A DNA stretch of 64,000 nucleotides from Naegleria gruberi. Taxonomy: Eukaryota. Positions within the stretch are counted from its first letter, which is position 1; each line of letters opens with the position of its first letter. Below the pieces are notes generated by a model, which did not search any database, was not told where the DNA came from, and saw nothing but the letters and a program-made list of their open reading frames with translations. The position numbers and the translations under genes are program-made. Below are positions 2,552-55,040 of the stretch, piece after piece. The stretch is from the NCBI GenBank assembly GCA_000004985.1, contig GG738895.1, one strand, 5' to 3'.

Positions 2552-2972
2552 TGAGCTGAATAAATAATGATCTTAATCTAAATACATAGGAAAATACCAA
2601 AAAAATATTTCAAAAATATTGGCAACAACCAGTCCCTCACAACGCTCTTGATTCCTTCTTGGAGTAGTTTCACATCTATTAACTCAAAGAATTTCACCAC
2701 ATCATCTCATAGTAATAATTTTTGGAATTTAATCCTTCGCCATGTGATTTGGAAATTATTTTATTGTTCTATTAGGAATAATTCAAATTGGTAAATAATC
2801 ATCCACAACCATCATGTGATAGTAGTATACATGGGTATTGTAAGACCATACTTCTCCGTCACTTCTCAAGTATATTTAATACAAGTTATGTTTTACAACA
2901 TGAAACATTGTATTTGGTGGTATGATGAAAATCTATTAATGATGGGATTGATAAACCAAAATACTTTTTTGG

Positions 2973-2991
2973 GGTTGTGAATTCCCAACCT
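2973..2991. promoter_or_regulatory. 19-nt near-palindromic element GGTTGTGAATTCCCAACCT, 62 nt upstream of the helicase ATG. An identical copy lies at 54900..54918.
   Basis: Exact 19-mer shared with 54900..54918. It is an inverted repeat of the half-site GGTTG(T/G)GAA. Confidence 0.6.
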
Positions 2992-3052
2992 TCCTTGCTT
3001 CTTTCTAATCACAACGAAGTTTCTAACGAAAAAAACCACACAGAAAAAAAAC

Positions 3053-6000: not shown

Positions 6001-8797
6001 TGAAAAGGTGTTAAGAGAAAGTGAGAATGGTGTAGTATTATTTGTTGTGCCAAATAAGGCATTAGTCAATCAAGTTTATTGTGAAATCCAATCAAGATTG
6101 AAAAAGAATCAAAATAATATGGCCACAGCTGGTATGGCTACAGCAAATACAAGATTGGATGTATTTAATTCTCAATTACTTGTCATAGTACCTGCAATGT
6201 TGGAGATTTATTTAATGAGCTCAGCTCCAAAGGTTCTTGAGTGGAGAAAGAGAATTAAATATCTTGTCCTTGATGAAATACATTGTATAACAAGTGATGA
6301 TCAAGGTGAATACTATGAACATTGTATTCAATTATTAGATTGTCCTGTCATTGGATTATCTGCTACTTTGGGTAATTCTGAAAAATTTGCAAAATGGATG
6401 ACTCATGGATCGAGAGATAATGTACATTTAATTTATGAACCTGATTATAAAAGGTTCAATCCATTAGAATATCATAACTTTAATGGAACAGAAATTTCTC
6501 ATTCACATCCATGTGAATTATTTAATCCAAAATATCTAAATGAAAAGGAAATACAAAAATGTAGAATGATGACAATAGATGAATGTTTCCAATTAAAGAG
6601 AATGCTATTGGAAATAGATCAATCCGATGAGATGAAGGAAATAATCGAAACTCATGTTGGCTATCATTTATTGAATCGCAATAACCAATTGTCATGCATA
6701 ACTTGGAATGATCACATTCAGTACAAGCTTGGCTATAAACAATTAATGATCTACCTAGTGAATCATCCAACCAAACACAAAGTACTTTCCACTGTAGTGA
6801 GCTCATTACAAATGTCATACGCAGACGAAAATATTAAGCCAGTTGAATTTGTAGATGATATGATACACTTGATCATCAAAATGAAGAAGGAAAAGATGCT
6901 TCCCTCCATAGTATTCATTTTAGATAGGAGGATGATTGATCTTATGGTTAGAACCTTACTGCATAGAAATGTCTATTTATATGAAAATGAGGAAGATTGT
7001 CCGAGAGCTGATATTTTGAGACTAAATATTGATGATAATGATAGCGAAAAGACTATCAATAGGTATTATATTGATGCACTATCTCATGGAATTGGAGCTC
7101 ACTATGCTGGTATGAACGATGGCTATTTAATTGAAATTGAAAGACTCTTTAGAGAGAAGAAATTACCACTCATATTTACAACCTCCACTCTAGCTCTTGG
7201 TATTCATCTTCCTTGTAAAACAGTAGTTATGGCTGGAAGTTCCATTTATTTAACCAATTCACTTTTTAAACAATGTTGTGGAAGAGTTGGAAGAAGAGGA
7301 ATAGATCAGAAAGGTAAAGTTATTCTATATGGACTGAGTAAACCAAGAATTAGAAGATATTTACTGTCAGAACCTATTTCCATCAATGGAACAGTTGGCT
7401 TAAAACCAAGCTTCATTCTTAAAATGTTTACATCTCTTAATCAAGCTGAACAGGATTTAAAATCTGGTGAAAAAAATCCATTCCAAGATGCATTCCAAAG
7501 AGTATTAGAAAAACCATTATTTTCCATTAATGAAAATACAATGATTGCAACACAATCACAAATGTCATACTTTATCAGATTCCATACAGAATTTTTGAGA
7601 CAAGCAATGTTCCTTAATAAGAAATGTAATCCTCTTCAATTGAGTGGATTAATTGGACATCTCCATTATAGAGAACCTTTCAACTTTTTAATGGCACACT
7701 TTTTACAAACTCGAATTTTTGAAATGTTGGATATTAACAAGATTAGGGAACACGAATTTGATAAGATTATTTTAACCATTTTTACTTTGCTCTTTGCCAG
7801 ATATAGAGTTGGCAAACACATGTCGCAAAATACGTTGGACACTGACTTTACGAAAAACATGTCCAATATTTATAGGAAAATGATTGAGAAAAATGTTGAA
7901 TTCAATAATGAAACATTGGGAATTTATTCCAATTATGCTATTGCCTATTGTTTGAGTGAAAAATTGAAAGATGAAACCCTTCCACTTTCTGATTATTCAA
8001 CAATTATTTTAAAGGAATGTGAAAGTGAGTGCAAACTATTTACCGAATTGAAAAAGAGTCGATCTACAAATACTCACTCAATTTCTTCATTTTCTGCATT
8101 AAGTGGAAATGAAGATGGTAAATATCTAACAGAAGATCATTTCTTTTCCACTCTAAAGCATACAATTTCAATTAATAAGGCACACGTACCATTTACTAGT
8201 GCTTTGTCTGATGAAGACCATCCAATAAGTTGTTTCCTTTTGGATTACTATGGACATGGATCTTTGAAGATTCTCACAGAAGATCATCAATTTATCAACA
8301 TTGGTGCAAGCTCTAAACTTATCAGTGAAGCCATTAGAGATTTGAAGAAATTGAGAGCTAGTTTGATTAATGAAGAAATATTTTCATTTTCAATTTCAGA
8401 TTATGAACGAAAATTGGATAGTGGAGTTGTTTCTGAATGGTTAGTTAAGGAGTGTCCTTGGTTGAAGAATAATCCCAATTTAGAATTGATAACATTTGAA
8501 AAACTCTATAATTGGTTAACAAAAAACGTGCTAGAGATAGAGGTATCTGCACTGTTTCCTATTAGGGGAAATGGATTGAAGATGTTGAAAAGAAAAATTG
8601 AAAATAGATTTGCTCATCCAATTATTCAAAGTCTTGATAGAATCTTATCTAAACTTGAGGAAGGTGAAAGAAGAGAAAGACAACAATCTTTTAATGAAAG
8701 AAAAGAAATCAAACAAAAGAAACAATCATTGCGGAATGATTTGGATTCAGTTGAGAGTTTTAAGGGTATCAAGCATGCAAAATCAAATTTCATGTGA
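3053..8797 (+). CDS. Large DExH-box SF2 RNA helicase (Ski2-like or DDX60-like), 1914 aa, with a roughly 900-aa N-terminal region of unknown function.
   Basis: Helicase motif I PTSNGKT, motif II VLDEIHCI, motif V-VI region TSTLALGIHLPCKTVV and QCCGRVGRRG. Single uninterrupted ORF. Confidence 0.8.
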   Translation: MSTQTTKPSIVLFIRTSNSSKKQSIICDHIRKMTFGKPHEGNALLVLQVGSEPILLDDLVIKLKGWKIGQHVSQEQQPPHFVHTNKLRDCLQYSKGSTLKNSSCTFNALDVNACNQLEKGQHYAIRLSDVKLAFLPPSLDFDQVQVEIFKKDQLVGAISHSKQEAIDSHIEMSAKSLVSKWKTKSRYEHLDLIDGVGAADFIVINVDALISMALKKSNGLDWKEHGGQWLHLVWLCEKMLSLLKSRNVNFDLICFKNSIIMDGNFSFFVARMIVFNHLKKYCTFPCYLFDSLLSKEWEEYIRQANPSAVISSDCNYTNAYLNLMSNISYIVTNVEEGAKSVLGDVYSSAYLSWVRSVEPELDNLSKFLQNSSISSTLKIREFHQLENVMKQVNELQLHSNFTRLEVFLSSFLLFIENCKQDKVMESLFYGISMIYSVVLLDYLPIEARHCNLKETINELTQFMQELYKYCSMVLFEIDNFQDISCDLLDCRLIHWLILNFKPNNPFTLNQWIEIICELSPQPVKDSLNKIVLLLKERVSFDFDSDFEFSSIVSPYIRNYAYDYSNSKNRCTVLEVKNNFINTFCNLQSSSVIQEDSFKKPLFYDIYHFHSTRLITDTAEHLERNKYSTVDKTREKLNGMVELFKKVNKCKEIATEQVPKDLKFTEHVNEKNIMKIVSENYEKSQKPLNAIKEIIRKQESLVKKKEDEEETFSISELVSISLTIQENIQQFIPIMGKYSPKNNTTMVFGKKLYIQLLDSFKYQLPKSRKPIESKLLQRTVEGPTSKISLNELEEQKAMYRLYHVNSWIRFIYSYLMELNSLCLYFTEKEIAKELENLATSARMFGFCQTAQLIENEISPKKISKHEEDIIDPNYLFLYHFEKTAPTTPPLERFTKKKHNQILNELVQEKVLLIEKLKKDSSTKSREEISHEIKKVNVNIKLRESLTFTPDDWQNQLISYVNRDESVLVSVPTSNGKTFIVFYLIEKVLRESENGVVLFVVPNKALVNQVYCEIQSRLKKNQNNMATAGMATANTRLDVFNSQLLVIVPAMLEIYLMSSAPKVLEWRKRIKYLVLDEIHCITSDDQGEYYEHCIQLLDCPVIGLSATLGNSEKFAKWMTHGSRDNVHLIYEPDYKRFNPLEYHNFNGTEISHSHPCELFNPKYLNEKEIQKCRMMTIDECFQLKRMLLEIDQSDEMKEIIETHVGYHLLNRNNQLSCITWNDHIQYKLGYKQLMIYLVNHPTKHKVLSTVVSSLQMSYADENIKPVEFVDDMIHLIIKMKKEKMLPSIVFILDRRMIDLMVRTLLHRNVYLYENEEDCPRADILRLNIDDNDSEKTINRYYIDALSHGIGAHYAGMNDGYLIEIERLFREKKLPLIFTTSTLALGIHLPCKTVVMAGSSIYLTNSLFKQCCGRVGRRGIDQKGKVILYGLSKPRIRRYLLSEPISINGTVGLKPSFILKMFTSLNQAEQDLKSGEKNPFQDAFQRVLEKPLFSINENTMIATQSQMSYFIRFHTEFLRQAMFLNKKCNPLQLSGLIGHLHYREPFNFLMAHFLQTRIFEMLDINKIREHEFDKIILTIFTLLFARYRVGKHMSQNTLDTDFTKNMSNIYRKMIEKNVEFNNETLGIYSNYAIAYCLSEKLKDETLPLSDYSTIILKECESECKLFTELKKSRSTNTHSISSFSALSGNEDGKYLTEDHFFSTLKHTISINKAHVPFTSALSDEDHPISCFLLDYYGHGSLKILTEDHQFINIGASSKLISEAIRDLKKLRASLINEEIFSFSISDYERKLDSGVVSEWLVKECPWLKNNPNLELITFEKLYNWLTKNVLEIEVSALFPIRGNGLKMLKRKIENRFAHPIIQSLDRILSKLEEGERRERQQSFNERKEIKQKKQSLRNDLDSVESFKGIKHAKSNFM

Positions 8798-15180: not shown

Positions 15181-16743
15181 TTATTTACATTTCTCTAGAA
15201 TTTTATCGAATATTTGTGAGAGCTTTGGTACCAGATCTTCTGTGTCCAATGAATTTGTTATAATGATTTCGCAAACTCTATTTCCTAAATCCACTTCCTT
15301 GAATTTGTTAGTAATTGAGGTCAAGTAAAAATCCGCATCTAGGTTGTTATTATCATTTCCTATGGAAAGTAACGAGTTCAAAATTGTAACCTTATTTGGT
15401 GAGTCTAACTTTTTCTTGAATCTATCAACATTAGTTAATACGAGAAACACTGGTTGATTCTTGATCGATTCATTCGTAATCCAATCTTTAAATGTTGTCA
15501 AATCCTCAATAAATCTATTAGTAGTAATATCTTCCCAACAAACTAGGTCAAACTCTGAAAGAGATGCCACATAAACAAGTGCTTGGCAGCATTTCATTAC
15601 TGCAGACCATTTTTTCCTTTCGGTACGAACGCCTGCTAAGTCCATCAGAGTTATTGACTTGTCCTTGTAGGTATAAATTCGAGAAATGACTCCAGTTGTT
15701 CGTTGTTGGAATACAATGTAGTCTCTCTCGGTAGCTCTGTATTCTGAACTTGTTAATCGTTCATATTCTGAAATATAATACTCAATACAATTTCCAATCG
15801 AATAATTCAAATTCTTATAGTCGTGAATGTTATCCAAAATTTCTTTAACTCTTGAATCATGTAAAATATCATACCATGTTGCAGCATCTATCACCTTGTC
15901 ACCAATTAATTTTTCAGAAGCGTGCTTTGAGATGAAATTTTTCATTTTCTGACAAGTTGCCCAATCGAGAGCAACATCACCATTTGATTCCTGTTCTTTG
16001 AGTATTCCTTCAAAGAGAGCTCTCAATACTTCCACCAAATTTTGTTGTATGAATGTGGCTGAAAGATTAACAGCCTTCTCAGCATATTTTCCTCCAATAA
16101 TCTTTTCGCATTGTTTGAATAGAGTACTCTTTCCACTTCCTTCACATCCAAACAAGGCAATCTTGAGGTCGGAATCTTTTGGCACTTCATTGGCCTTCCT
16201 TCCAGAGAGCCATTGCAACAAGTTACTTCTCGGAGATGATGGTGGAGACATTGTTGGAGGAGTTTTTGATTTCTTATTGTTGAATGGAATATTTCTTGGC
16301 GAAGTACTTCCAGAAGATGACGATGAGCCTTCATCCATTATACCACTATTCGGAACAAGCAAATAATTAGCACTCTTAATCCCCTCGTCTGATGATGACG
16401 AAGAGGATGCTGGAGAAGCAGAGGAGTGACCCATCAATCGATTCCCAGCCGAAGTTGTCCTTCCAAAACTGACGAGACTTTCATTATTATTACTACTACT
16501 GGAAGCAGCGTTGTTGTTTGTATTTTTTCGTTGCTGTAAATTTCCAAGCGAGGGAGAAGTTGGAATGGCGGGAGAAGTGTTGGTAGAGCTTGGAATGAGA
16601 AATTCTTGGACATCTTGTTTGGTGGTTCGACTCTTGAATGATGGAAGGGAAAATTTACGTTTAGTTTTGGACATTTTTTTGCATTGAGAGTGATGAACTA
16701 TTTTTTTGAAAGGGAACTTTAAATGCAATCTGTCAAAAGTCAT
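15181..16743 (-). CDS. Heterotrimeric G-protein alpha subunit with a Ser-rich N-terminal extension. Divergent: the switch II Gln is replaced and NKxD is altered.
   Basis: G1 KIALFGCEGSGKSTLFKQ. Switch I RTTGV. G3 DLAGVRTERKKW, where canonical is DVGGQRSERKKW. G4 region LVLTNVD, where canonical is NKxD. Confidence 0.75.
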   Translation of the reverse strand: MTFDRLHLKFPFKKIVHHSQCKKMSKTKRKFSLPSFKSRTTKQDVQEFLIPSSTNTSPAIPTSPSLGNLQQRKNTNNNAASSSSNNNESLVSFGRTTSAGNRLMGHSSASPASSSSSSDEGIKSANYLLVPNSGIMDEGSSSSSGSTSPRNIPFNNKKSKTPPTMSPPSSPRSNLLQWLSGRKANEVPKDSDLKIALFGCEGSGKSTLFKQCEKIIGGKYAEKAVNLSATFIQQNLVEVLRALFEGILKEQESNGDVALDWATCQKMKNFISKHASEKLIGDKVIDAATWYDILHDSRVKEILDNIHDYKNLNYSIGNCIEYYISEYERLTSSEYRATERDYIVFQQRTTGVISRIYTYKDKSITLMDLAGVRTERKKWSAVMKCCQALVYVASLSEFDLVCWEDITTNRFIEDLTTFKDWITNESIKNQPVFLVLTNVDRFKKKLDSPNKVTILNSLLSIGNDNNNLDADFYLTSITNKFKEVDLGNRVCEIIITNSLDTEDLVPKLSQIFDKILEKCK

Positions 16744-30636: not shown

Positions 30637-30830
30637 GATTACTTTATTTGTATTCAAGAGGACAAATATGTGAAAATTGAAGAAATTTGTTGTTATTTGT
30701 AAAATTGGATTGCTGTGAATGCTTTATTACCAGTGTCTCTTTCAAATATTTTGTGTTTCGAACGTACATTATTGTTCCCATCTCTTGTTTTAAATTATTT
30801 GGTTTAAACCAATGCAAAAACAAAATGATT

Positions 30831-30902
30831 CTCCCATGCCGGGAATTGAACCCGGACCTCCTGGGTGAAAGCCAGGTATCCTAGCCATTGGACTACACGG
30901 GA
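30831..30902 (-). tRNA. tRNA-Glu (anticodon TTC).
   Basis: 72-nt cloverleaf with a 7-bp acceptor stem (TCCCGTG/CATGGGA). Anticodon loop CTTTCAC, T-arm GGGTTCAATTCCCGG. Identical to the copy at 40678..40749. A T-run follows the 3' end. Confidence 0.9.
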
Positions 30903-31232
30903 ATCTTGTTCATTATGAAAATAGTTCTCTTATAATATTTACAATATTTCTGTAAACAACAAATGACAAGACGCTATCTCAAGATTTTACAAACAATAGC
31001 CAGACACATTCGAATAAGTTTCCATGTGCGATTAATGAACGCTTTCTTTTATCACCAACTTTGTCTCTCAATCCTGAATAGAATTTGTTTCGATACTTCT
31101 CCCTTCCAATGAGCATCAAATTTAACCTCTAAAAAAAATAATTACGACTTCAAAGCACCAACCGATTTTTTATTGATTTGTGTCTCTTTGAATAACAGAA
31201 TCTTTTTATACAAACAAACAACATAACAACAA

Positions 31233-34139: not shown

Positions 34140-34871
34140 TGAGAGATCAGTGTATGGGATTTCAGTGTATTTGGTCCATGGGTTTTGAATTGGGAAACTA
34201 AATGTTGATGTATTTAGTGTTTTTTGTTTTTCATATTGTTGTTTTTATAATTTCCAAAATATTGATGATGGTCAAGTGATAATTGTTTGCGCGGTATTCC
34301 AATATGACAAGAAAGTGTACATCAAGATGATATGTTGACGATGAAATTAATTTCCAACAATAAAACACGACCGTGATGATGATTAAAAATTTTCTCTTCT
34401 TGGCTTTTTCTACTTACGCTTCATAAACGTTGAATTCACCTCTCTTATCAGCAACAGCAACAGTGTCGACAACATCTGGAACAACTGAAGCAGGTAAAAT
34501 TCCTTTAGGGAAGAAGTTCTTGTTGAGGACGAGCATTTCGTTGACGAAACGATAGCCGGTAGCGGCAAGACCACGGAGCATTTTTTTTGAGTTGAAGCGA
34601 TTTTACAATAGTGAGCATTTATGGTTTTAATAGAGAACATAACAGCTGCTAAAGCTAGTAAGAACAATATTATGGCAATCACAACAACAATTGTTTTTCA
34701 ATAATTTCCAATATTCAATGATGACAAGAAAGTGAGAGGGAGTTTTTATTCATATTTTGTTTTAATTAAAACAAAATTGATGAGAGGCTTTCGTTCCGAA
34801 TTTTTTTTTACGTTAGGTTTGTGATTGAATTCCTACAAACACTGGAAGCCTCTAAAAAACAAACAAAAAAA

Positions 34872-37800
34872 ATGTCTTCACGTTATCAAAATGCTGGTGG
34901 AGGAGGTAATTACAATAATAGACAAGGACCACACCAGAAAGTGTTATGTGTAGCTGAAAAACCAGAGGCTGCCAAACAAATTGCCACAATTTTAAGTGCA
35001 GGAAAATTTCAGAGGAGAGAAGGAAAATCCAAGTTTAACAAGATATTTGAATTTGAATATAGAATGAATGGTGTTGTTGTAACAATGTCAGTCACATCGG
35101 TTTTAGGTCATTTGATGGAGTTGGGTTTTGATCCGAAATTAAAATCGTGGACATCTTGTGATCCGATTACTTTGATGGATCCTGCAACACCTGTATTTCG
35201 GAATGTGCCAGAGAAGAATTTAGAAATTCAACAAAACCTAGAACAAGAAGCAAGATATGCCACAAAATTATTGCTGTGGCTCGATTGTGATAGAGAAGGA
35301 GAAAATATTGCATTTGAAGTGATTGAAGTTTGCAAGAAGGTAAATCGAAGCCTTTCCATTGAAAATGATTCAATTCTCAGGGCAAGATTTTCAGAGTTTA
35401 CAGCTGCAGCAATCAATAGGGCAATTAGAAATTTGGAAAGACCAAATGTATTGGATAGTATGGCTGTAGATACGAGACAGGAATTGGATTTGAGAATTGG
35501 AGCCTCTTTTACTCGTTTTCAGTCACTCAGACTCAAAAAGAAGTTTCAAGGAATTACAGCAGATTATATTAGTTATGGACCATGCCAATTTCCAACATTG
35601 GGATTTGTGGTAAAGAGAGATTTAATTATCAAGAACTTTGAATCGGAATCATTTTGGACTTTAAATTGTACACACGATATGGGAGAGGAAGGCAAGGCTC
35701 AATTTCTATGGAAGAGAGGTAGGCTTTTTGACCAATTGACTTGCTTGGTCATTTACGAGTTGTGTGTTGAAGCTCAAAGGGCTAGAGTGGTCAATGTGGA
35801 AAAAAAAAGAAGATACAAATACAGACCAGATCCATTGAATACAATTGAATTGCAAAAATTGGCATCTCAGAAATTGAAAATGGGTTCACACGAAACTATG
35901 AAGGTTGCTGAATCATTGTATAATAAGGGTTTTATCAGTTATCCTAGAACAGAAACTAACAATTACAATCAATTCCAGGATGATGATTTGAAACGACTTG
36001 TAAATGAACACACATCAAATCCAACATGGGGTGGTTATGCTTCAGATCTATTGAATGGAGGTTATCAAAAGCCACCTAGTGGAAAGCAAGATGATAAGGC
36101 GCATCCTCCAATTCACCCTCTCAAAGGTGATTGTAATTCCAATGATTCAAAGGAACAAGCTCTCTATGAATTGATTGCAAGACACTTTTTAGCATGTTGT
36201 TCAAAGGATGCTGTCGGTGCCGAGACTAAGGTTATCATTTCAATTGCCAACGAAGAGTTTACTTGCTCTGGATTGATGGTTGAACAAAAGAACTTTTTGG
36301 AAATTTGGAAGTATGATAGATGGTCGGATAAGAGTATTCCAGTTTTCAATGCAGGTCAAGAGTTTATCCCAACCTCATTATTGATGGATCATGGTGAAAC
36401 TCGTCCACCTCCTCATCTTTCTGAATCAGATTTGATTTCTGCTATGGATTCTAATGGTATCGGTACTGATGCCACTGTTGCTCAACACATTAAAACCATC
36501 CAGGAGAGAGGCTATGTCATCAAGAAAGGAAATAGATTTGAAGCCACCAACTTGGGAATGGCACTCTTGCAAGGATATGATCTCATTGGATACGAATTAT
36601 CAACTCCTAATTTGAGATCAAAGATGGAAAAGGATATGCTTAGTATTTCAAAAGGAGAACAATCCAAGGAAGCAGTCATTCACCAAAGCTTGTCCATGTA
36701 CAAACATGTATATATTCAAATTTGTAAATCAGCTTATTTATTGGATAAGGCGGTACAACAACATTTTCCAACTCTTGGTGAAGGACAGAGCAGAGTTTTA
36801 GGAAGAGGATTTTCACTATGTTCCTGTAAGAATCCAATGGACTTGAAGGAGCAGGATGGAAATAATTTCCTTCATTGTAAAAATTGTAGTGATTCATATC
36901 CTCTTCCTTCTAAATCAGAATATGAAAGTATTGAAGATGTTTGCCCAATTTGTAATTTCCAGATACTTAACATTATCACACAAAAGAACACTTCATACAA
37001 GCTGTGTCCTCACTGTTTCAATAATCCCCCAGAAATTGAAAATTCAAATGAATCTTTTGCTAATGGATTCAAATGCTTTAACTGTACATTTACTGGTTGT
37101 AAATATTCGAGAAAGAAGGATGCCGTAGTAAGGAAATGTCAGAAATGTTCCAACAATTTAGTAGTAAGGCAACGAAAGAATGATACCTCCCTTTATATTG
37201 GATGTAAGGGGTTCCCAAATTGTAAATCTGCAGTGTGGCTTCCAAAGTCAATCGAAAAGGCTGATTTGACAACTGAAAAGTGCAACAGGTGTAGTACTCG
37301 TTCGGATACTGTGTATAGATTGAAATTTACATTTGCCCAAGGAACACTTCTACCTCCAGGTGTTAATAGAGAACATACAACTTGTGTATTTTGTGATCAG
37401 GACTTTGATGAGGCTTTCAATATTAATTTGAATTCCCTTAATGGTGATTCAGGTGGTGCTTCTTCCCATGGAGTGCTTGTACACAACTCTACATCGAATA
37501 ATAGAAACATGCCAAATAGAAGTCCAACAATTGCTGGTGGTGGTTATGGAAATAGAACAAGTCCAGTTGGGGCAACAGGGAGAAATATTGCTGCAAGACA
37601 GAATAATACACCACCACCTAATCAAATGACTTTGGATAGAATGTTGGGCAAGAGAACAAGAGTTGATAATAATAATGGAAATAATAATAGCAACCCACCT
37701 CCTCAAAATTCTTACCAAAGAAACAATACATCTCCAAGAAATCAATTCGGAAACAATCATGGCGGTAGTGGATCTGGTGATGTTGTATGTACAAATTGTA

Positions 37801-37919
37801 GCTCTGCACCAGAAATTTTCACTTGTAAGCAGGGAGAAAACCAAGGGAGACAATTTTACAAATGTCCAAATAAGGATAAGGACGAGGCTTGTAAAAAGTT
37901 TTTCAAATGGGTTGATTAA
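34872..37919 (+). CDS. TOP3: DNA topoisomerase III (type IA) with C-terminal zinc-ribbon and GRF zinc fingers.
   Basis: TOPRIM start VLCVAEKPEAAKQIA. Active-site Tyr motif GFISYPRTETNNY. Multiple C4 zinc ribbons. Terminal GRF finger CKQGENQGRQFYKCP. First ATG at 34872. Confidence 0.85.
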   Translation: MSSRYQNAGGGGNYNNRQGPHQKVLCVAEKPEAAKQIATILSAGKFQRREGKSKFNKIFEFEYRMNGVVVTMSVTSVLGHLMELGFDPKLKSWTSCDPITLMDPATPVFRNVPEKNLEIQQNLEQEARYATKLLLWLDCDREGENIAFEVIEVCKKVNRSLSIENDSILRARFSEFTAAAINRAIRNLERPNVLDSMAVDTRQELDLRIGASFTRFQSLRLKKKFQGITADYISYGPCQFPTLGFVVKRDLIIKNFESESFWTLNCTHDMGEEGKAQFLWKRGRLFDQLTCLVIYELCVEAQRARVVNVEKKRRYKYRPDPLNTIELQKLASQKLKMGSHETMKVAESLYNKGFISYPRTETNNYNQFQDDDLKRLVNEHTSNPTWGGYASDLLNGGYQKPPSGKQDDKAHPPIHPLKGDCNSNDSKEQALYELIARHFLACCSKDAVGAETKVIISIANEEFTCSGLMVEQKNFLEIWKYDRWSDKSIPVFNAGQEFIPTSLLMDHGETRPPPHLSESDLISAMDSNGIGTDATVAQHIKTIQERGYVIKKGNRFEATNLGMALLQGYDLIGYELSTPNLRSKMEKDMLSISKGEQSKEAVIHQSLSMYKHVYIQICKSAYLLDKAVQQHFPTLGEGQSRVLGRGFSLCSCKNPMDLKEQDGNNFLHCKNCSDSYPLPSKSEYESIEDVCPICNFQILNIITQKNTSYKLCPHCFNNPPEIENSNESFANGFKCFNCTFTGCKYSRKKDAVVRKCQKCSNNLVVRQRKNDTSLYIGCKGFPNCKSAVWLPKSIEKADLTTEKCNRCSTRSDTVYRLKFTFAQGTLLPPGVNREHTTCVFCDQDFDEAFNINLNSLNGDSGGASSHGVLVHNSTSNNRNMPNRSPTIAGGGYGNRTSPVGATGRNIAARQNNTPPPNQMTLDRMLGKRTRVDNNNGNNNSNPPPQNSYQRNNTSPRNQFGNNHGGSGSGDVVCTNCSSAPEIFTCKQGENQGRQFYKCPNKDKDEACKKFFKWVD

Positions 37920-40528: not shown

Positions 40529-40677
40529 ATTAAATTTTAGCATATTGAAAGAATTATTTGTAAACTCAGTAATATTAACTCCTTTTGCCAACTATCTCTT
40601 TTAACAAAATGCTAAAATTTCTATTGGAACTTGGTAACCAAGTGGCCATTAAGGGATTATTTTCATTCTGAATGTAT

Positions 40678-40749
40678 TCCCGTGTAGTCCAATGGCTAGG
40701 ATACCTGGCTTTCACCCAGGAGGTCCGGGTTCAATTCCCGGCATGGGAG
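40678..40749 (+). tRNA. tRNA-Glu (anticodon TTC).
   Basis: TCCCGTGTAGTCCAATGGCTAGGATACCTGGCTTTCACCCAGGAGGTCCGGGTTCAATTCCCGGCATGGGAG. Identical to the minus-strand copy at 30831..30902. The downstream T-run AATCATTTTGTTTTTG is shared. Confidence 0.9.
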
Positions 40750-40816
40750 AATCATTTTGTTTTTGAATTGTTTTGAATTGGTATTCATTTAGAGATAAAC
40801 AGAACTCTCTTAAAAA

Positions 40817-45856: not shown

Positions 45857-48800
45857 TTATTTAAAAGGTTTTTGTGCTTGTCTAATAATCATGTATAAAT
45901 GTGAATCTTGGAATGAATCATTCCTATCATAGATTGATAACAATTTTTCAATTAATTGAATTGGATCAAAATTGCATTGAGATGGTGGTTTTAACAGTGA
46001 GTGATAATATTTTGAATTGTAAACAATTTTTCCATTTTCATCAATATCACCTCTTCCAAAGGCTTCCATTTCTATTATATTATGAGGTTTTGGGGCCACG
46101 GATAAGAAATTGCAAATAATTGATTGTTCCCATTCATTCTTGAAATATAATGAACATGAAAGAATGAATAAATCTGGAAGGAATCTATTAAGTTTTGCAA
46201 TTCTAGTCACTCTATCAAATTGTGAATTCACAGAAGGGATAGAAAGTGAAAGATTATCATATAATAGTTCATCACTGATATGAATTCTTCTACTGAATCT
46301 ATTCAATGTGAAATTAATTCCTTTTCCATTTTCATTAATAAATTTAAATATTTGATTGGCTTCGTATGGACATATTAAAATTATATAATTATCATTCAAG
46401 GAGTGAACAAACCAATCTATTGGTCTCTTGTAATAATCAATTTTAGAGTCAATTGTTGAAATGACAACATTTTTCATACTTTTGGTTGCATAAATGTTAC
46501 CATTCCAAATATTAGGGAGATTGTAAAGTGCAAAAGTATCAGATAATAATTCTTTAACATTTAACATGGTGGAGATATTTGGCTTGAATCCCATAATTAG
46601 CAATTTCAAATTAGTGTCCAATTCAGGAATACAGGGTTCTAATTGAGGAGGTCTAAATACTTGCTTTTCTTCTTCTAATTCATTTTCCAATTCTCTTTCT
46701 TGTTCTTCATTCAGTGTTTGTGAGAATATTTCCATAGTATTGGTTGACAGTTTTTCAATAATTTTTGAAATATTACTCTCAAATATTGTACAAAGATTCT
46801 TTGTGTGTAACGATCTAAAATGTAATTCTTTCAATTTAAATATTTGTGATAATAATTGCTTCTTTCGTTCTAATCCATAAAATGATTGTAATTCAAGTAT
46901 TTCATCTTCAATATATTTGTCATAGTATTGTTGAATAAGTATTGATTTTCCTAATTCTTGATTTAACCATAGTTTATGACTGTAAATCAATCCTTGGACA
47001 GCCCATTGTAATAAATGATCCATTTCCATTTGTTTTGTATTGAAATGTGTCCAGTTAATTATTTCTCTTGTATTGACAGTATTATTCTCTGATAATTTCT
47101 TAATATGTGAATCAACTTCTTTGGATGCCCAGAATGAAACGGTGTGTCCATTCACAGAACATAATTGTCTCATTCTCATGCATGCTTGAACGAACCTTTC
47201 ATTTGAAAGACCATTTCCTAAAGTAACAGCAGCTCTTGTACTTTCTGGAAATTTAATATCCGTCCCTCTTGTATGTACGTCATCTATGTATGTAACACAT
47301 TGTTCTAACTTGTTTTTATATGGAGACAAATCAAAATTAGTAACATGATTATATCTATCTATGACAGTGAGTTCATCATTATCATTAAAATATATTGCAG
47401 CATGGATTTCGTTTGGATTTGAAATTTCTAACCAATATTGTGCCAATTCTTCATTTGTCATTTCTAACATTAGTGCTCCAACGTCTAGTAATACTCTTGT
47501 TGTTTTTTGTGAATTAGCAATAGATTGAATAATGTCTTTGCATGATTGTTCATTTGAAATAACGTGATATTCTTCATTCCTCAAAATGAATGATTCAACA
47601 TTTTTAGAAGTATCTAGTAATTCTTCTAATTCATTTGATTGAATCGAAATTGGTAATAAAAATGATTTTGTGCCACTGAAACCGCTTGATTGATGATTCT
47701 TTTGATTACTTAAATTCCAAGATGAGGAAGTCAACTTTTTAGGAAATTGTTTGCATTCTTTTGGAAATACACACTTATTTAAATAAAAGTCAATAGCTGC
47801 CATTGAATATTTAAAAAATGGAAAAACTACTTCCATTTTTTGATGATAATCGGATAAGTTAATATTTGATAAAGATTTCAATTGTTCAGGTATTTGATTC
47901 TGACCTTCTTCGACCCATTTACAATATTCCTTTTCTGGGTCATCCAATGATAGCAATTCTTCGAATATATATTCAAGTTGAGAATTATCTAATCCACTAT
48001 AATAATAGCTTAATAATGTTAATAAAATTGCGATATCTGGATGACCATATTCAGATCTTTCAGATGGTACGTCTTTGGCTCTAAATGGAACGGCAATTGA
48101 TCTGTTAAAACCAACTCCATAATTAACTCTCCATCTTCTTTCTAATACAAGCTCCAAGGTTCCATACGCTAATAATCCTCTTAGTATTAATAATGATTCC
48201 CACTGGCTTTCTTTAGAATATTGTCTAATTAATTTCAATGTAGAATCATTAATTTCTTCACATGTCAAAAATTGTTTAAATAAAAGTCTATGTTCTGGCT
48301 TGATAGAAATGAAAATTCCTTTCAAGTTTCCATCAAGAATATCATTAACAATATTTTCTACAAGCAATTCAAAAGCTTTTGAATCTAAAATTCTCAAATG
48401 AGGAAATGAATGTTCAAAATTATTCATTTCCCTAAGTTCGACACAAGACGACCCAAATGAATCGAATAAACCTTTAGAATGTTTCTTAATTGATCTAAAT
48501 ACTTTTTGTAAAACATTCCAACGTTGATCTCTACCATCAATTTTTAATTGATTTCCAATTGTATAAATTAGTTGATACCTGGCATGAAGGATTTCATCTG
48601 ATTCATCTAATAAATCTCTACAATTATTTTCTAACCAATCTTGAACTTTAAATAATTGTTGAAAAAGGTCCGATTTAGATTTGATAGATTCAATACATTT
48701 CAATTCAAATGATAATCTATATTCGGGAACTGTGATGAGAACGCCTCTAGCTTTCATACAATTCGAATATAATGTTTGCAGTAACTCACAATCTAGTACT

Positions 48801-51800
48801 TGATGATCTCTATTAAATGGTGTTACTAGTACTGGTTTATCCAATATTCCACCCAATTTGAATCTTAGTGAGTTATAATTTGATGACAGTAGAGATTTTA
48901 AAACAGTTAATCTAACTAATTGATTTTTGTTCTTTCCAAGTTCTAATATTAACATTGGAATGATTACAGATGATTTACCCTCTCCCATATTAAATTGCTG
49001 CAATATATATGATTAAATGAAAGAAATTAATAAATTATACATACCATTACCATATTATTATGTGAATGAATCATATGATTTGCAACTCTAACTTGAACTG
49101 GTCTAATCATTATATTCATTTCTATTTCTAATATTAACCAATATGGATGGTCAGATGGCTTCCAATTTTCATGACCCTTGTTTTCTAATTCTCTTGAATG
49201 AAGTGTTGTCATTTTGGAATACTCTAAAGCTTTTAATCTTTCAGCTCTTTGCAATAATGTTATTAAAACTCCATAACAACCAACTAAATTTTTCAATTTT
49301 TGATTAGTTTGGTCATCTAATAGTAATTTTAAAATATTGGTCTTTGTTACTCGTGGCCATAAGCCAGCAATATAGAGTGCTTGATTGGTGGTATTATCAT
49401 TTGGATGTAACACTTTTTGTATTAAATCTTCCATTTCCATATAAAGAATTTCAACATTATCATCAACTTGGCCAGTTTCAAAGACTCTAGTTGAGAATTC
49501 AATAATATTACTACTCAAATTATTTAGTTGATCAAAATAATCAACCAAAAAGGTCCATTTAGGTTTGCATGGACAATCTTGAATTTGTTTGAAAATTAAA
49601 GGGAATCTACTTGGTATGGTGTATGATGGCAAGTTATTCACCATAACTTGCAACTTTTCAAGGTAAGTATGGAGTTGATAATTTGCTTTCCTTTCCTCAA
49701 ATATAGTTCTCATCTTTTCCTTGTACGTATCCAGAATTAGACTGGATGATTCGAATGAAATATAAATACTATTAGAAGTTTTAAATGTTGAATAGGTATT
49801 AAGTAAATTATTGCTCATTTTTAACTTTTCCTCTGCGATTCTGTTATCATATTTATCTTGATTTTCTCTTGATAGTGTAACATATAAATCTCTGAATGAC
49901 CTTTTATGGTTGTCCAATATTTCTTGTATAGTATATGCATATACATCACATTCCTTGATATTCCTTTCCTTCTCAGAATGTGGATATGAGTACATGATTT
50001 TATCCTTATTAAGATAAATTAACCCTAATAAATTAACTAGCGTCTCATCAAATTCAAAATACATCAGCATTGTTAAAAAAATTATTAATTTTCTTTTAGA
50101 AAATTGTTGAATTTCATCGGTCAGTTTTGAAAAACACGACTTGATATCAACTGTCATCCAACCTTCAATAGTTTTCAAATCTGTTTTGCAATTCTGTGTT
50201 GAATTGATAATAGATTTTATACTATTCAAAGGTCCAAACATATTGTTCTTCAAAGAGTAACATAATTGTCTGCACTTATTGATTTCTTTGGCGTCGGAGT
50301 GAGTTTTCATCCAAAAACTAGAATCAGAGGATTCACTGTCTATTTCACAATCTTTAGAGTAATAGTGAATATCTTTAAAATACGCCTTCCAATAGAGTAA
50401 ATTTAGTATTATTTTTACTCTTTTCAATACTAATAGCTGAAAATAATTTTGAATTTTCTTTCTTAATTCGTTCGCATAATATCATATAGGAGTCTAATTG
50501 TACAATAGACGATAAATTATTATTCCATGTCGTTACTTGCATATCAGTTAAATGTTCTGGATAATAAGATCTCTGTGGAGATAATGTCGATATTAATTCA
50601 AGTAATTCAATCTCAAACTCTTTCATTGGAATATGTAATTGATAACAACGTTTAGATTTCAAGATAGATATTGCAGCTTCATATCCACACAATTTGGTGA
50701 ATGGATCAGGTAAGAAGTAAGAAGTACATCCATGCAAATATGCTAAATACAACCAACTTGCTAAACTTTGCTCTGCTTCCAATCTTTCCAGTTGTGCATT
50801 GACAGTATAGGTGAAGAAGGGAGGAGATGAAACAGAATTTAAATCAATATCTACTTTTACATGACCACTAATGTCTCTAGCTACTTGAATATCTCCATTA
50901 GGAATTACTAATACTGTATTTTTCGAATAGTTATCAACTAATTTGAGCCCTTTTTGCAATCCAATTAATGTTCCTATTTCAAAGTTAGTGGATACTGTCA
51001 TTCCAAATTGTTTACAAATAAATTGTGAGTAATTATTGGACAGAATAAATATTAATCCTTTTCTAGGTAATTCAACAAAAAGAGTATTATCTTGATAGTA
51101 AGAATGTACATGTTCATCTTTTTCAATTCTGCTCATAATTTTCATTATTTCTGTAAATATTTTACTTCTATTGTCTATAAAATATTTCTTATCCTTCATA
51201 TCTAATAACAATCTACTATTCAAATTCAAAGTATAATGAACCTTTGAGAAATTGGTATCTAAGAAAAACATTGGTCTAAATAAAATACAATTAGATTCCT
51301 TATCAATCCAATGACCATATTTTTCTTTGAGTTGAAAAGGTAAATCTTTTGCAAAATATTCATGCGGAAAATAAACTTTTTCCTTATTGTCCTTGGTTAT
51401 TTCACTGATAATTAAAATTTCTTGCTCGATTTGTGATATTAATTTAAATTTGAAAAAGCTTCCACCAAATGTGTTCTTAGTCACAAAGGACTTGAATTCT
51501 GATCCTGGTTGTACATCAAGGACTATTTAGTGTCAATACATCAACATTCTTCATATACTTACCCATATTTTGAAAAATTCTTTGATATTCATTGCTTTTT
51601 GTAATTATTTCTGGTAGCCGTCCAATAGGAGCATGATTTATCAATAATGTTCCGTTAATAATGTTAACTTGGATGAGAACTTCGTTAAATTTAACATAAT
51701 ACCAATTTTCAGATTCTGCATATTGATGCCATTTCAAATTCAATTCTTCTAAATTTCTAACTTCACTCCATTTTTCTTTCAGGAAAATGTTTAATTCAGA

Positions 51801-54800
51801 GCTATCTTTTAACGAATCATGAATTGAATCTTGAATTAATTGTGATGTCTTGATTGTTTCTCTGAACAATAACTTTCTAAATTGAGGGAGTGTATTTAAA
51901 CCAATATTATTCAAAAGTAAATTTTCGTAAATTATTGATCTCGCAAGCAACCATTTAGAAAAATCTCCTAGTAATCTCTGGGAAGAAAAAGGATGAAAAG
52001 TTAAACAGCAGCAACAAGCTGTTTCAGTTTGCAAGTTTCGAATGTTTGTGCACTCGATCGGATTGTCAATAATTTTGAGCAATACTTGTTCACTTTTAGA
52101 TAACCACACAAGGCAGAGTTCTCTAATATCAAGTAATAATTTCTCAACTCTGTTATGCAATCTAGTATTTTCACACATTTCCAAAAATTTTTTGGCACAA
52201 AATACAATGATTACTAATTGATTAATAGATTTCCAATTATTTTCAATTTTTTTCAATAATTTCTGAAGTAGTGAAACAAGCTCATTTGAAAAATTCAAAT
52301 CTCGAACAGGATCATTTGTTTCTCTCCACCAATCTCCTTTGGAAGGGCATGATTGTAATAAACTTTGGAGAATTAAAAAACAAACATCTTGTTCATCAAA
52401 AGAGAGTACGTTATTTGAAAGAACTTTGGCTAAATTATGCATTTGAAGACGATAGCCAGCCCTAAATGATCCAAATTCTATAAATTCTGTAAGAGGAAGT
52501 TTAGGATGACAATTAATTTGAGAGGATAAAACATCATTCTGGTTGTGGCAATAATTTCTAAGGAAAGGAATCAAGCTATTATACCTTCCATTCTTGTCTA
52601 GTAAAAATGAGCATTCTTCAACAATACTGGATTTTGAGAAATGTACGTACTTTCCATCGATAGAAATTCGAAGATTCAGAGCGTTTCTTTTTATAAATTC
52701 ATCTTCAGAATTCCTTGGGTGGTGTTGCTCTTTAGAGTAATGGGATCTCAAATAAGATTTTTGAGAGCTTGTTAAACTAACTCTATTGTGTTTAGTGTTA
52801 GAGTTGTGGTTTCTTAAATACTCTTTCCAAATTTCAGTGCAACCATTAGCTTTTTGCCTTGGATTGTAGTAGTTTACAATTTCAAAGAACTCAATCAATA
52901 CATTGCTCAAGCATCTAAACTCATCAGGAATTAGTAATTCAAAAATAACAGCATTTTTCAAATAATCCTCTTCTGGTAGAACTTTTTCGTATGGCGTAAC
53001 ACTCATTTCACTTGCCCGGTTCTGGTAGTAACATTTCGAACAATGAGATCTGCATTTGTAACGGCGATGGTATTCACTATAATATTCATCATGGGAAATT
53101 TTGCTAGCTTGTTCCAGGTATTCCTGATACGTTTGTTTTGCTTTTCTAACTTCATCTTTTTTAGCTTGGATTTTCTCTTGAATTTCTTTTTCAATATTTT
53201 CTCTCAACCGGATCATAGTTGGATTTCTGTTTGCATATCTGACAGAAAATGAATTTCGGCTTATTTCTGAAAGAAAATCAGGTTGATAAATAGCTGACTG
53301 TTCGAAATTATTGAAATAGGTTTCAAGTTCGAATAGATATTTCCATTCATCTTTTCTATTGAGGTTAATATAATTGAAAATTGAGGTATCAATACCAGTC
53401 TTGTACTCTTTAACCATAGATGATTGTTTTTGTGCAAATTCTATTAACTTTCTAATGATATTTAGACAAGTGAGAATCATTCTACTGAATCCCATTGGAT
53501 CAGTGGCATAAACTGTTTTTGCCACTACTACGTATTGTGTAAATAGGTTATTTAAATTATTAGGTGTACAGTGATAGTCTGTTATCATGTTCTTTCTAAC
53601 CCATTCTTCAATAATAAATAATTCAGATAAAGATGCTTCACCACCGTCTGTTTGACTAATCGTAAATTGAGAAATACTAAAAGATCTATTGAATGATTTT
53701 GGAACAATTTCACTTTCGTCAACTGTTTGTTGTTCTATTTCTCTGTAAAGGTTAATGACTTTTTCAGACTCAACCAATTGTTGATAAATATTATCAGACT
53801 TGTTGGCTGCTGAACCTAAAGTCAAATTAATTTTGGAGGTATCACTGCAAATAATATTCCAATTATTATCCAGATATTTTCTTTGTTCAGCAATAAACTT
53901 GTAGGCATAAGTCAAAATATGCTTGGTTTTAGGATCGTGCAAATCATCCAACTTTTTAAGTCTAATTGCTAGTTTTGAAATAACTTGTAATTTTACCTCA
54001 TCACTCATTTCATGGAAGTGCTTGTTAGCAATATGAATGAAATATTTCATCAATACTGCCTTATAATAAACTTTTCCATCATTCTCGCCATACTTCCAAA
54101 CAAGTAACAATTGCAAAATAATTTTGATGGACATCCACAATCCAGATCTCCTGTAAGGATGCATGGCATTGCTCCATTCAATTGAATTTCTAATCTTTTT
54201 GTTGATCATCTTCTCGTGAGCTAATTCACCACCAAGAAGAGCAACCAACCACTCTGTGATAATTACTGAAGAAACTACATCACGCCCTTCATCTTCTTTA
54301 CTGCCAGCTTTTGTTGATTTTGGTCTTATTTGACCTATTTGATTCGAAAACAAATCTTGCAACAAAGTGGCAAGCTCATCAGAGCAAAGCATTGAGAGAT
54401 TCTCATCCTTGACACTGATAGTAACCTCAGGATAAAGTGTTACAAGATCGCCACACCTAGACATAATCTCCTTGTTGTTTGGATGCACTGTAAATACTGA
54501 AACTTTAGCAGATTGTCCCTTCTCCTTACGAATGATCAAACATGCATTACAGTTTTGAATATAGAGAGGAAGTATAACATTAGCATTGGTATCAAGTAAA
54601 CTTTGTACTTGGCCACCGTCTAAACCAAGTTTGGAGTCAATCTCATCCACATCTTCTTGAACAGACATCCAATTTGTAAATGCCTTCTGAACATCTGCAA
54701 ATTCAACGGCTAATTCATCCATTTTCAAAAATTGGACAAACTCTAAAAGATGAAGTAAATCATAGCCAACAGTCTCTTGTGATGGCAATTTTTTCAATAA

Positions 54801-54842
54801 AAACAAGTCACACAAGAATGTGTCTAGAAATTGTGTTGACAT
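45857..54842 (-). CDS. Giant protein of about 2940 aa from an uncharacterised family, with a GEGKSS P-loop-like motif (DUF3638/DUF3645-like). Rebuilt from four ORF-track fragments.
   Basis: Exons 54842..51563, 51522..50504, 50436..49045 and 48997..45857, all in phase. The introns are 40 nt (GTAAGT..AAATAG), 67 nt (GTACAA..TTATTTTCAG, weak donor, least certain) and 47 nt (GTATGT..TTGCAG). The NMGEGKSSVIIPM motif opens the last exon. Confidence 0.6.
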
Positions 54843-54899
54843 TTTTTTGATTATTGACTTCTGACTACTCGCCTACAACACTCTTATTGATAATTAGGA

Positions 54900-54990
54900 G
54901 GTTGTGAATTCCCAACCTCTTCTGTTTATGTTTTCCGAAGGGTTGGGAAGTCTAACAAATTTTTTCCGAAGGTTGGGAAGTCTGAACATT
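54900..54990. promoter_or_regulatory. Second copy of the 19-nt element GGTTGTGAATTCCCAACCT, about 58 nt upstream of the giant-gene ATG, followed by two tandem units of about 32 nt that each carry the half-site GGTTGGGAAG.
   Basis: Exact 19-mer at 54900..54918. The tandem units are TTTTCCGAAGGGTTGGGAAGTCTAACAAA and TTTTTCCGAAGGTTGGGAAGTCTGAACATTT. Confidence 0.6.
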
Positions 54991-55040
54991 TTTTTAATTT
55001 TTCGGAGTGCAATATTGGCGGCTTTGAAAGATTGTTGGTG

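Follow-up and report, generated by a model that had tools for sequence, protein, structure and literature searches.

One giant gene from four open reading frames in Naegleria gruberi: a DUF6606-DUF3638-DUF3645 family member with two introns, a probable single-base frameshift and a predicted SF2-type motor module

Four long open reading frames (ORFs) follow one another on the minus strand of a 64,000-nucleotide (nt) stretch of Naegleria gruberi DNA (contig GG738895.1 of assembly GCA_000004985.1; the whole stretch is referred to as the window), at positions 54842-51516, 51484/51526-50375, 50427/50481-49027 and 49003/49012-45857. They raise the question whether they represent four genes or one, how they would be joined and what kind of protein they encode. 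The window is gene-dense nuclear DNA of the heterolobosean amoeboflagellate N. gruberi NEG-M with a G+C content (GC) of 28-37%, and since the ORFs reach 370-1,100 codons in DNA of about 29-32% local GC, an origin by chance is impossible. A preliminary description had joined all four in frame via three introns of 40, 67 and 47 nt to a product of about 2940 amino acids (aa), which was proposed to carry a Walker A-like GEGKS motif and to belong to the DUF3638/DUF3645 family. Our analysis leads to a somewhat different picture, namely one giant family gene with two introns, one frameshift and a motor of the superfamily 2 (SF2) type, which we regard as probable in its entirety.

The four ORFs almost certainly represent a single nuclear gene of N. 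gruberi and a member of the DUF6606-DUF3638-DUF3645 family. One BLASTP high-scoring segment pair (HSP) connects query positions 13-2964 with positions 23-3098 of a full-length protein of the heterolobosean Willaertia magna (KAL9653555.1, P0405, 3,100 aa; 34.5% identity), so that all four fragments are collinear with a single orthologue over more than 99% of the Naegleria sequence. ORFs and HSP together delimit a coding region of ~2,965 codons on the minus strand (45857..54842), with the ATG at 54842 and the stop codon at 45859-45857. Searches with Pfam profile hidden Markov models (HMMs) located DUF6606 (PF20255) at the N-terminus (aa 13-270, 54033..54806, minus strand; 135.4 bits at a gathering cut-off of 27, E 3e-39), DUF3638 (PF12340) in one stretch covering profile positions 1-223 of 225 (aa 1855-2073 in the 2,943-aa numbering, 48470..49173, minus strand, a span that includes the 47-nt intron; 261.5 bits at a cut-off of 31, E 6.8e-78) and, downstream of it, DUF3645 (PF12359; aa 2197-2224, 56.8 bits at a cut-off of 25, E 1.3e-15). 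The single gene and its family, both already suggested in the preliminary description, are thus well borne out. With family members of Willaertia, chytrids, Dikarya, bdelloid rotifers, a lycophyte, Amoebozoa and Hexamita, the Naegleria protein shares the same three Pfam domains in the same order, a length of ~3,000 aa and end-to-end collinearity, and it keeps all family-invariant residues; it differs from its nearest relative in sequence (34.5% identity overall, 45% in the C-terminal third) and in a shorter linker after aa 1461. What sets the sequence as given apart among DUF6606-DUF3638-DUF3645 members is a 1-nt frameshift, which is discussed below.

How the fragments are joined was assessed by enumerating, around each of the three junctions, all GT..AG intervals whose removal re-establishes an open frame. 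The intervals of 40, 67 and 47 nt belong to this set, and removal of all three yields a protein of 2,943 aa. Exon 1 (51563..54842, minus strand, aa 1-1093, based on the junction listing and homology) is followed by intron 1 (51562-51523, minus strand, 40 nt, GTAAGT..ATAG, reading GTAAGT...CTAAATAG), which restores the frame and has a donor fitting the local consensus. Intron 3 of the preliminary description, the second real one (49044-48998, minus strand, 47 nt, GTATGT..TTGCAG, reading GTATGT...TATTGCAG), lies within DUF3638 and precedes the last exon (45857..48997, minus strand, 1,046 codons plus stop), which encodes most of the ATPase module and the C-terminal tail. Junctions 1 and 3 are crossed without gaps by 25 homologues and the Willaertia orthologue, as illustrated by QNM/VLDVQPG versus GNHVFEVQPG at junction 1 and NMVM/QFNMGEGKSS versus NMVMQFNMGEGKTS at junction 3 (the slash marks the junction), and the Pfam DUF3638 match spans junction 3 unbroken.

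The phytochelatin synthase gene just downstream served as a splice control. It appears as three fragments in the ORF track and was rebuilt at 45725-44235 on the minus strand to a protein of 458 aa by removal of two short introns, at 45433-45370 (64 nt, GTATGT..AAAG) and 45029-44980 (50 nt, GTAGGT..GCAG); the spliced product matches the Pfam Phytochelatin profile over its full length (positions 1-210 of 210, E 1.5e-90). The topoisomerase III gene (Top3), inspected for the same purpose, is intronless. The four introns validated in the window measure 40-64 nt, have 17-28% GC and share the donor consensus GTA[AGT]GT (GTAAGT, GTATGT, GTATGT, GTAGGT), introns 1 and 3 agreeing in donor and length with both control introns. 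Judged by the gap-free homology and these splice features, we consider introns 1 and 3 to be real spliceosomal introns.

The 67-nt interval at junction 2 (50352..50418, minus strand, GTAAAA..AAAG), in turn, is very probably no intron but coding sequence disrupted by a single-base frameshift. Translated in the frame of the downstream exon, the interval gives KIILNLLYWKAYFKDIHYYSKD, and this frame yields ...LLYWKAYFKDIHYYSKD, matching a motif of the family (KEYWRSLSYYSDT in Willaertia). In the closest relatives, a short variable linker is followed by the motif KxYW[RK]S..[YF][YG][SP]..A[KR]I, e.g., KEYWRSLSYYSDTAKI in Willaertia, KAYWQSCEFYGPQGRL in a chytrid, KSYWRSREFFGQEAQM in a lycophyte and KLYWNYRDSYNPLARL in the family member P0001. 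The Naegleria peptide KAYFKDIHYYSKDCEI of the downstream frame, located wholly within the supposed intron, aligns gap-free to the Willaertia motif. On the other side, a tblastn search with the Willaertia protein as query showed conservation of the upstream frame as far as 50414 (SAISIEKSK versus FAYQQEKAE). About 30 nt separate the last conserved upstream residue from the first conserved downstream residue, and because the sole GT..AG pair in this gap spans 33 nt and leaves the frame unchanged, no intron fits junction 2.

The competing models were also compared by score. In a local HMM for junction 2 built from 40 relatives, the frameshift reading obtained 85.7 bits, splicing of 67 nt 79.5 bits and splicing of 46 nt 77.3 bits, and the observed 85.7 bits were not reached in any of 500 shuffles that kept the composition of the 22 residues (mean 76.5, standard deviation 1.3, maximum 84.8). 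A deletion scan, in which one base was removed in turn from 50435 to 50377 and the product scored by this HMM and by global BLOSUM62 alignment to Willaertia, had its optimum at 50398-50405 (minus strand), an AAATTT run on the coding strand and the best-fitting site of the single extra base, with 89.5-89.9 bits and BLOSUM62 scores of 53-58; the intron models scored 14 (67 nt), 24 (46 nt) and 21 (91 nt) in the latter comparison. A full-length HMM comparison of the splice variants discriminated weakly (1820.9 versus 1817.3 bits).

An intact gene with three introns and a 2,943-aa protein would nevertheless have attractive features at this position: the 67-nt interval has GT..AG ends, restores the frame, is free of stop codons and has an intron-like GC of 24%; its AAAG acceptor is also used by a validated local intron, the 64-nt one of the phytochelatin synthase gene, and the region is weakly conserved across the wider family. 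Against these stand the peptide KAYFKDIHYYSKD encoded by the interval, which aligns gap-free not only with KEYWRSLSYYSDT of Willaertia but also with YW[RK]...Y[YG][SP] in chytrid, rotifer, lycophyte and amoebozoan relatives, the shuffling result, and a deficit of 10 HMM bits and 44 BLOSUM units relative to the frameshift model. Moreover, the donor GTAAAA deviates from the local consensus, lacking the G at +5 and the T at +6 that are found in all four homology-validated introns of the window, and the spliced product would be ~27 aa shorter than Willaertia between the flanking anchors, compared with ~5 aa for the frameshift model. We therefore consider the three-intron gene distinctly unlikely. 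Of the three introns described earlier, those of 40 and 47 nt stand and the middle one of 67 nt does not; the in-frame union of all ORFs by introns has to be given up, and the product length of about 2940 aa is replaced by 2,965 aa once two introns are removed and one frameshift is corrected. Exons 2 and 3 of the preliminary description, together with the supposed intron 2, form one continuous exon (49045..51522, minus strand) that, according to homology and the HMM tests, is broken only by the 1-nt frameshift, and the corrected protein reads ...SAISIEKSKNNTNLLYWKAYFKDIHYYSKDCEID... across junction 2. More generally, this case illustrates that an in-frame GT..AG interval can mimic an intron at a frameshift.

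Both frames could also be linked in vivo by programmed +1 ribosomal frameshifting. A shift of +1 is indeed what is needed, and the upstream frame ends with UUU UAA A, which superficially resembles the +1 sites of the Euplotes type. Shifting at this stop codon (deletions 50377-50381), however, gave 80.7 bits compared with 89.9 bits for a shift 20-25 nt further upstream, no orthologue has a frame break at junction 2, and we know of no frequent +1 frameshifting in Naegleria; an explanation of this kind is exceedingly improbable.

What, then, is the origin of the single extra base? An old pseudogene was considered and is excluded, as the 4.4 kb downstream are still open and every invariant residue of the family is kept. 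As long as the frameshift is present, only the N-terminal half could be made from the given sequence, and a real, fixed lesion would mean a young pseudogene or a truncated product of ~1,480 aa without the ATPase. The frame disruption is, after all, present in the sequence as given, and the lack of a protein model for this locus in the collections, next to adjacent genes that are present, fits annotators who failed to build a model or rejected it. Yet the rest of the 8.9 kb of AT-rich coding sequence contains no further stop or frameshift, all invariant residues checked downstream are intact, including those of the Walker A, Walker B and motif III-, V- and VI-like elements, and the lesion is situated in a homopolymer-type AAATTT run, a typical site of base-calling or assembly errors. 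A fixed frameshift thus appears rather unlikely. From the open 4.4 kb downstream and the intact catalytic motifs it follows that the lesion is most likely an assembly error or confined to a single allele; otherwise, a very recent pseudogenisation would have to be assumed.

The locus also stands out with respect to its public annotation. Among collections of 5.8 billion and 15 billion proteins, no N. gruberi protein from the giant locus was found, the best match being that of Willaertia with 45% identity; by comparison, of eight neighbouring ORFs that were checked, six have exact N. gruberi NEG-M counterparts there. The public N. gruberi protein set consequently seems to lack the 9-kb gene, possibly on account of the frame break. 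We therefore see here a newly recognised and apparently unannotated Naegleria gene of a family that was already known but is uncharacterised. For N. gruberi, the result flags both a 9-kb gene apparently missing from the public proteins and a probable single-base error or polymorphism of the reference.

Turning to the protein itself, the motifs of its C-terminal third and a structural model very likely identify an ATPase module with an SF2-type fold. At the start of the last ORF stands NMGEGKSSVIIPM (aa 1900-1912, 48991-48953), which includes the Walker A sequence or helicase motif I, GEGKS (aa 1902-1906, 48971..48985, minus strand; G, G, K and S invariant in 26 sequences). Together with the Walker B sequence or motif II, DESDE (aa 2028-2032, 48593..48607, minus strand; D, E and D invariant, following a predicted beta-strand), it lies in DUF3638, which would form the first RecA-like lobe. 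An insertion of ~300 aa between motif II and the next conserved motif carries DUF3645 (48017..48100, minus strand, AVPFRAKD...GHPD; A, V, P, K, H, P and D invariant). The second lobe would be entered with GFSGT, presumably motif III-like (aa 2336-2340, 47669..47683, minus strand; at least 90% conserved), and would continue with the motif V-like HTRGTD (aa 2472-2477, 47258..47275, minus strand; at least 90% conserved in H-T-R-G) and the motif VI-like QACMRMRQ (aa 2501-2508, 47165..47188, minus strand; family consensus QxCMRMRxLG), whose arginines are candidate arginine fingers.

An AlphaFold2 model of aa 1790-2943, computed with 26 sequences, had a mean predicted local distance difference test score (pLDDT) of 66 and a predicted template modelling score (pTM) of 0.45, with pLDDT values of 75-93 in two alpha/beta domains. 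In the first of these, one strand enters GEGKS and another ends in DESDE; it is followed by the helical insertion of ~300 aa with DUF3645, by the alpha/beta domain with GFSGT, TRGTD and QACMRMRQ and, in the C-terminal part, by long helices and a further alpha/beta domain. According to this model, GEGKS is a genuine, family-invariant Walker A motif in a predicted P-loop RecA-like fold, which agrees with its earlier designation and extends it to a two-lobed motor of the helicase type. Significant sequence or profile similarity to the DEAD, ResIII and Helicase_C models was not found. Unlike SF2 motors such as the RIG-I-like, DEAD-box, DinG/XPD and Snf2/Rad5 proteins, the Naegleria protein has the DUF3645-bearing insertion between motifs II and III, and its motor is placed at the end of an 1,800-aa scaffold with no nucleic-acid-binding domain recognised. 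We accordingly limit the claim to the fold level: the module would work like an SF2 motor, and we do not classify it as a SecA or a DEAD-box helicase.

A motor specifically of the SecA kind, which would unfold or translocate polypeptides instead of acting on nucleic acid, came into consideration because both the motif strings and the presence of an insertion between motifs II and III, at the PPXD position, recall SecA. The hhalign comparison of the family profile with E. coli SecA, whose query sequence was verified against the PDB, aligned RGTDI alone (GRGTDI in SecA; probability 0.2%, E 0.35), Pfam SecA_DEAD gave no match even at E <= 10, RIG-I and DEAD-box domains equal SecA in Z score, and SecA-type PPXD, HSD and HWD domains were not identified. 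The Naegleria protein further differs from SecA (NBD1-PPXD-NBD2) in being eukaryotic and ~3,000 aa long, with nothing pointing to a membrane translocon. A polypeptide motor of this type is therefore unlikely; with no significant hhalign match, the specific relationship suspected from the motif strings was dropped and the statement at the level of the SF2 fold kept.

Between DUF6606 and the motor, a model of aa 440-1455 (pLDDT 80, pTM 0.62) predicts a long alpha-solenoid containing a CxxHCxxC cluster, a beta-rich domain at aa ~1040-1345 and then the LAYLH...LPDP block. Judged by its pattern, the CxxHCxxC cluster (aa 597-604, 53031..53054, minus strand; C601 family-invariant) could be a zinc knuckle. 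The most conserved block of the middle region, LAYLH-x-TS-xx-LPDP-xT-xx-G-xE-A, spans aa 1353-1377 (50672..50746, minus strand) with H1357, D1366 and G1373 invariant. These residues bear on the name "ubiquitinyl hydrolase 1", given to many family members in UniRef, which would make the protein a deubiquitinase: C601, H1357 and D1366 are invariant and C778 near-invariant, and all of them lie outside the ATPase. Pfam, however, detected no OTU or other peptidase domain, and no papain-like fold was among the top 50-60 matches listed for the models of aa 440-1455 and aa 1790-2943, so that the database label is the one feature shared with OTU-type deubiquitinases. Presumably, the name was generated by an automatic rule that refers to an OTU grouping in PANTHER/InterPro. 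Neither Pfam nor the two thirds of the protein covered by models lend it support, and we regard deubiquitinase activity as very improbable.

Within the family, the closest relative of the last exon is again found in Willaertia magna (45% identity), which has two family copies on one contig. The orthologous Willaertia gene is also split by annotation; one of the two Willaertia paralogues is annotated as a 159-aa fragment and a 2,902-aa protein (KAL9653597.1 / KAL9653598.1, P0406 / P0260). Further close relatives occur in chytrids, a lycophyte, an amoebozoan and a sciarid fly, as well as in a bdelloid rotifer with five copies and in Hexamita with several; multiple copies are present in Adineta and Hexamita. 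A word-indexed search retrieved ~3,000-aa fungal proteins carrying exactly the same three domains, one of which (P0005) covers 94% of the query; a profile search gave at least 2,038 family matches, and HMMER, run exhaustively over 1.84 billion cluster representatives, gave 3,973 at E <= 1e-3, of which 1,333 at E <= 1e-30. With ~4,000 cluster representatives of ~3,000 aa, the family is spread across fungi, rotifers, plants, amoebae, metamonads and heteroloboseans under an automatic name that looks unfounded. If the assignment is true, the Naegleria copy would extend it into Discoba, and it would probably date to early eukaryotes.

Some family members carry extra Pfam domains (P0138, P0026, P0041, P0055 and P0080, with a PF14441 deaminase, zf-RanBP plus redoxin/AhpC, ArgJ or alcohol dehydrogenase), and some of these may be gene-model fusions. 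The PF14441 deaminase fusion was seen in a Fusarium protein, and zf-RanBP together with thioredoxin-like (redoxin/AhpC) domains in a 4,256-aa EukProt protein; the deaminase and zf-RanBP fusions could hint at function. In the literature, the DUF family label is found on a large microsporidian gene family (PMC5423893), the family ranks among the most expanded ones in Hypomyces with 9 copies (PMC6627653), a strain-specific family gene of Aspergillus oryzae is listed beside HET genes (PMC6237848), and a recent study on Tetrahymena describes novel family genes with a mechanism called "undefined" (PMC12615304, 2025). The literature searched thus gives no biochemical function, in line with what the preliminary description had stated.

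How such a protein might work can be sketched along its domain order, i.e., DUF6606, a scaffold of ~1,500 aa (predicted alpha-helical solenoid with the CxxHCxxC cluster, beta-rich domain, LAYLH...LPDP block), the C-terminal SF2-fold ATPase module and a predicted tail of coiled coil and alpha/beta domain. In the module, lobe 1 would be provided by DUF3638 with GEGKS and DESDE and lobe 2 by the part with GFSGT, TRGTD and QxxMRMR, separated by the ~300-aa helical insertion with DUF3645. Binding and hydrolysis of ATP in the cleft between the lobes could drive translocation along, or remodelling of, a polymer, most likely a nucleic acid, and the huge N-terminal scaffold might select or regulate the substrate. 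The patchy distribution, lineage-specific expansions, strain-specific copies and occasional fusions hint at an accessory, conflict or surveillance role and not at housekeeping. PADLOC defence models gave no match. A nucleic-acid translocase with an accessory or conflict role is accordingly a tentative proposal that we would place somewhat below even chances. More doubtful still is the wider idea of an ancient, eukaryote-wide family of giant SF2/SecA-like motors, possibly serving in surveillance or conflict by linking an ATP-driven translocase with a large sensing scaffold, for which the deubiquitinase annotation would be wrong. Placement in the SF2 motor fold nonetheless leads to a concrete, testable biochemical hypothesis, namely a polymer-stimulated ATPase. 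Overall, this is a result of annotation and classification that provides a reasonable biochemical lead and does not overturn current knowledge.

Several points weigh against the overall picture of one giant family gene with two introns, one frameshift and an SF2-type motor. At junction 2, a variant with a 91-nt intron reached 84.3 bits in the local HMM, near the frameshift models, but fell clearly behind in the pairwise score (21 versus 58), and sequence alone cannot separate an artefactual frameshift from a real mutation. For the motor, a match to Pfam DEAD was obtained with the Willaertia orthologue only and remained below threshold (E 0.093, 12.9 bits at a cut-off of 26), the hhalign comparison with the DEAD/Helicase_C protein of the window gave E 0.15 with Walker A/motif I and motif Ia in correct register, and PDB sequences searched with the C-terminal exon and the family profile returned no match. 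The C-terminal model is of moderate quality overall, with lobe orientation and tail uncertain, and aa 1-439 and 1456-1789, which lie outside the modelled parts, could hide another activity. Substrate and biological role are pure inference, and a functional experiment on any family member was not found in the literature searched, which contains passing mentions only.

Among the neighbouring genes, NAEGRDRAFT_72102, directly upstream of the giant gene, and SelO have exact matches in the protein collection, and the product of the ORF at 34821-37919 shows 100% identity with the annotated N. gruberi topoisomerase III (Top3). A 520-aa ORF with ATG at 15181-16743 (minus strand), unlike its neighbours, has no exact match there; its public model probably differs, e.g., by an intron or another start. 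NAEGRDRAFT_72082 (3053-8797, plus strand, 1,914 aa) combines a central DEAD/ResIII/Helicase_C core with an N-terminal sequence of ~950 aa without assignment; the window thereby contains another very large gene of the helicase type, which has no sequence relationship with the giant one. Two tRNA-Glu(TTC) genes, at 30830-30903 (minus strand) and 40677-40750 (plus strand), lie ~10 kb apart on opposite strands. Finally, the 198-bp intergenic region upstream of the ATG of the giant gene (54843-55040) contains a 30-nt tandem duplication (54931-54960 and 54961-54990), of whose TTCCCAACC core an inverted copy is found at 54906-54917, and this duplication may be a promoter or regulatory element.

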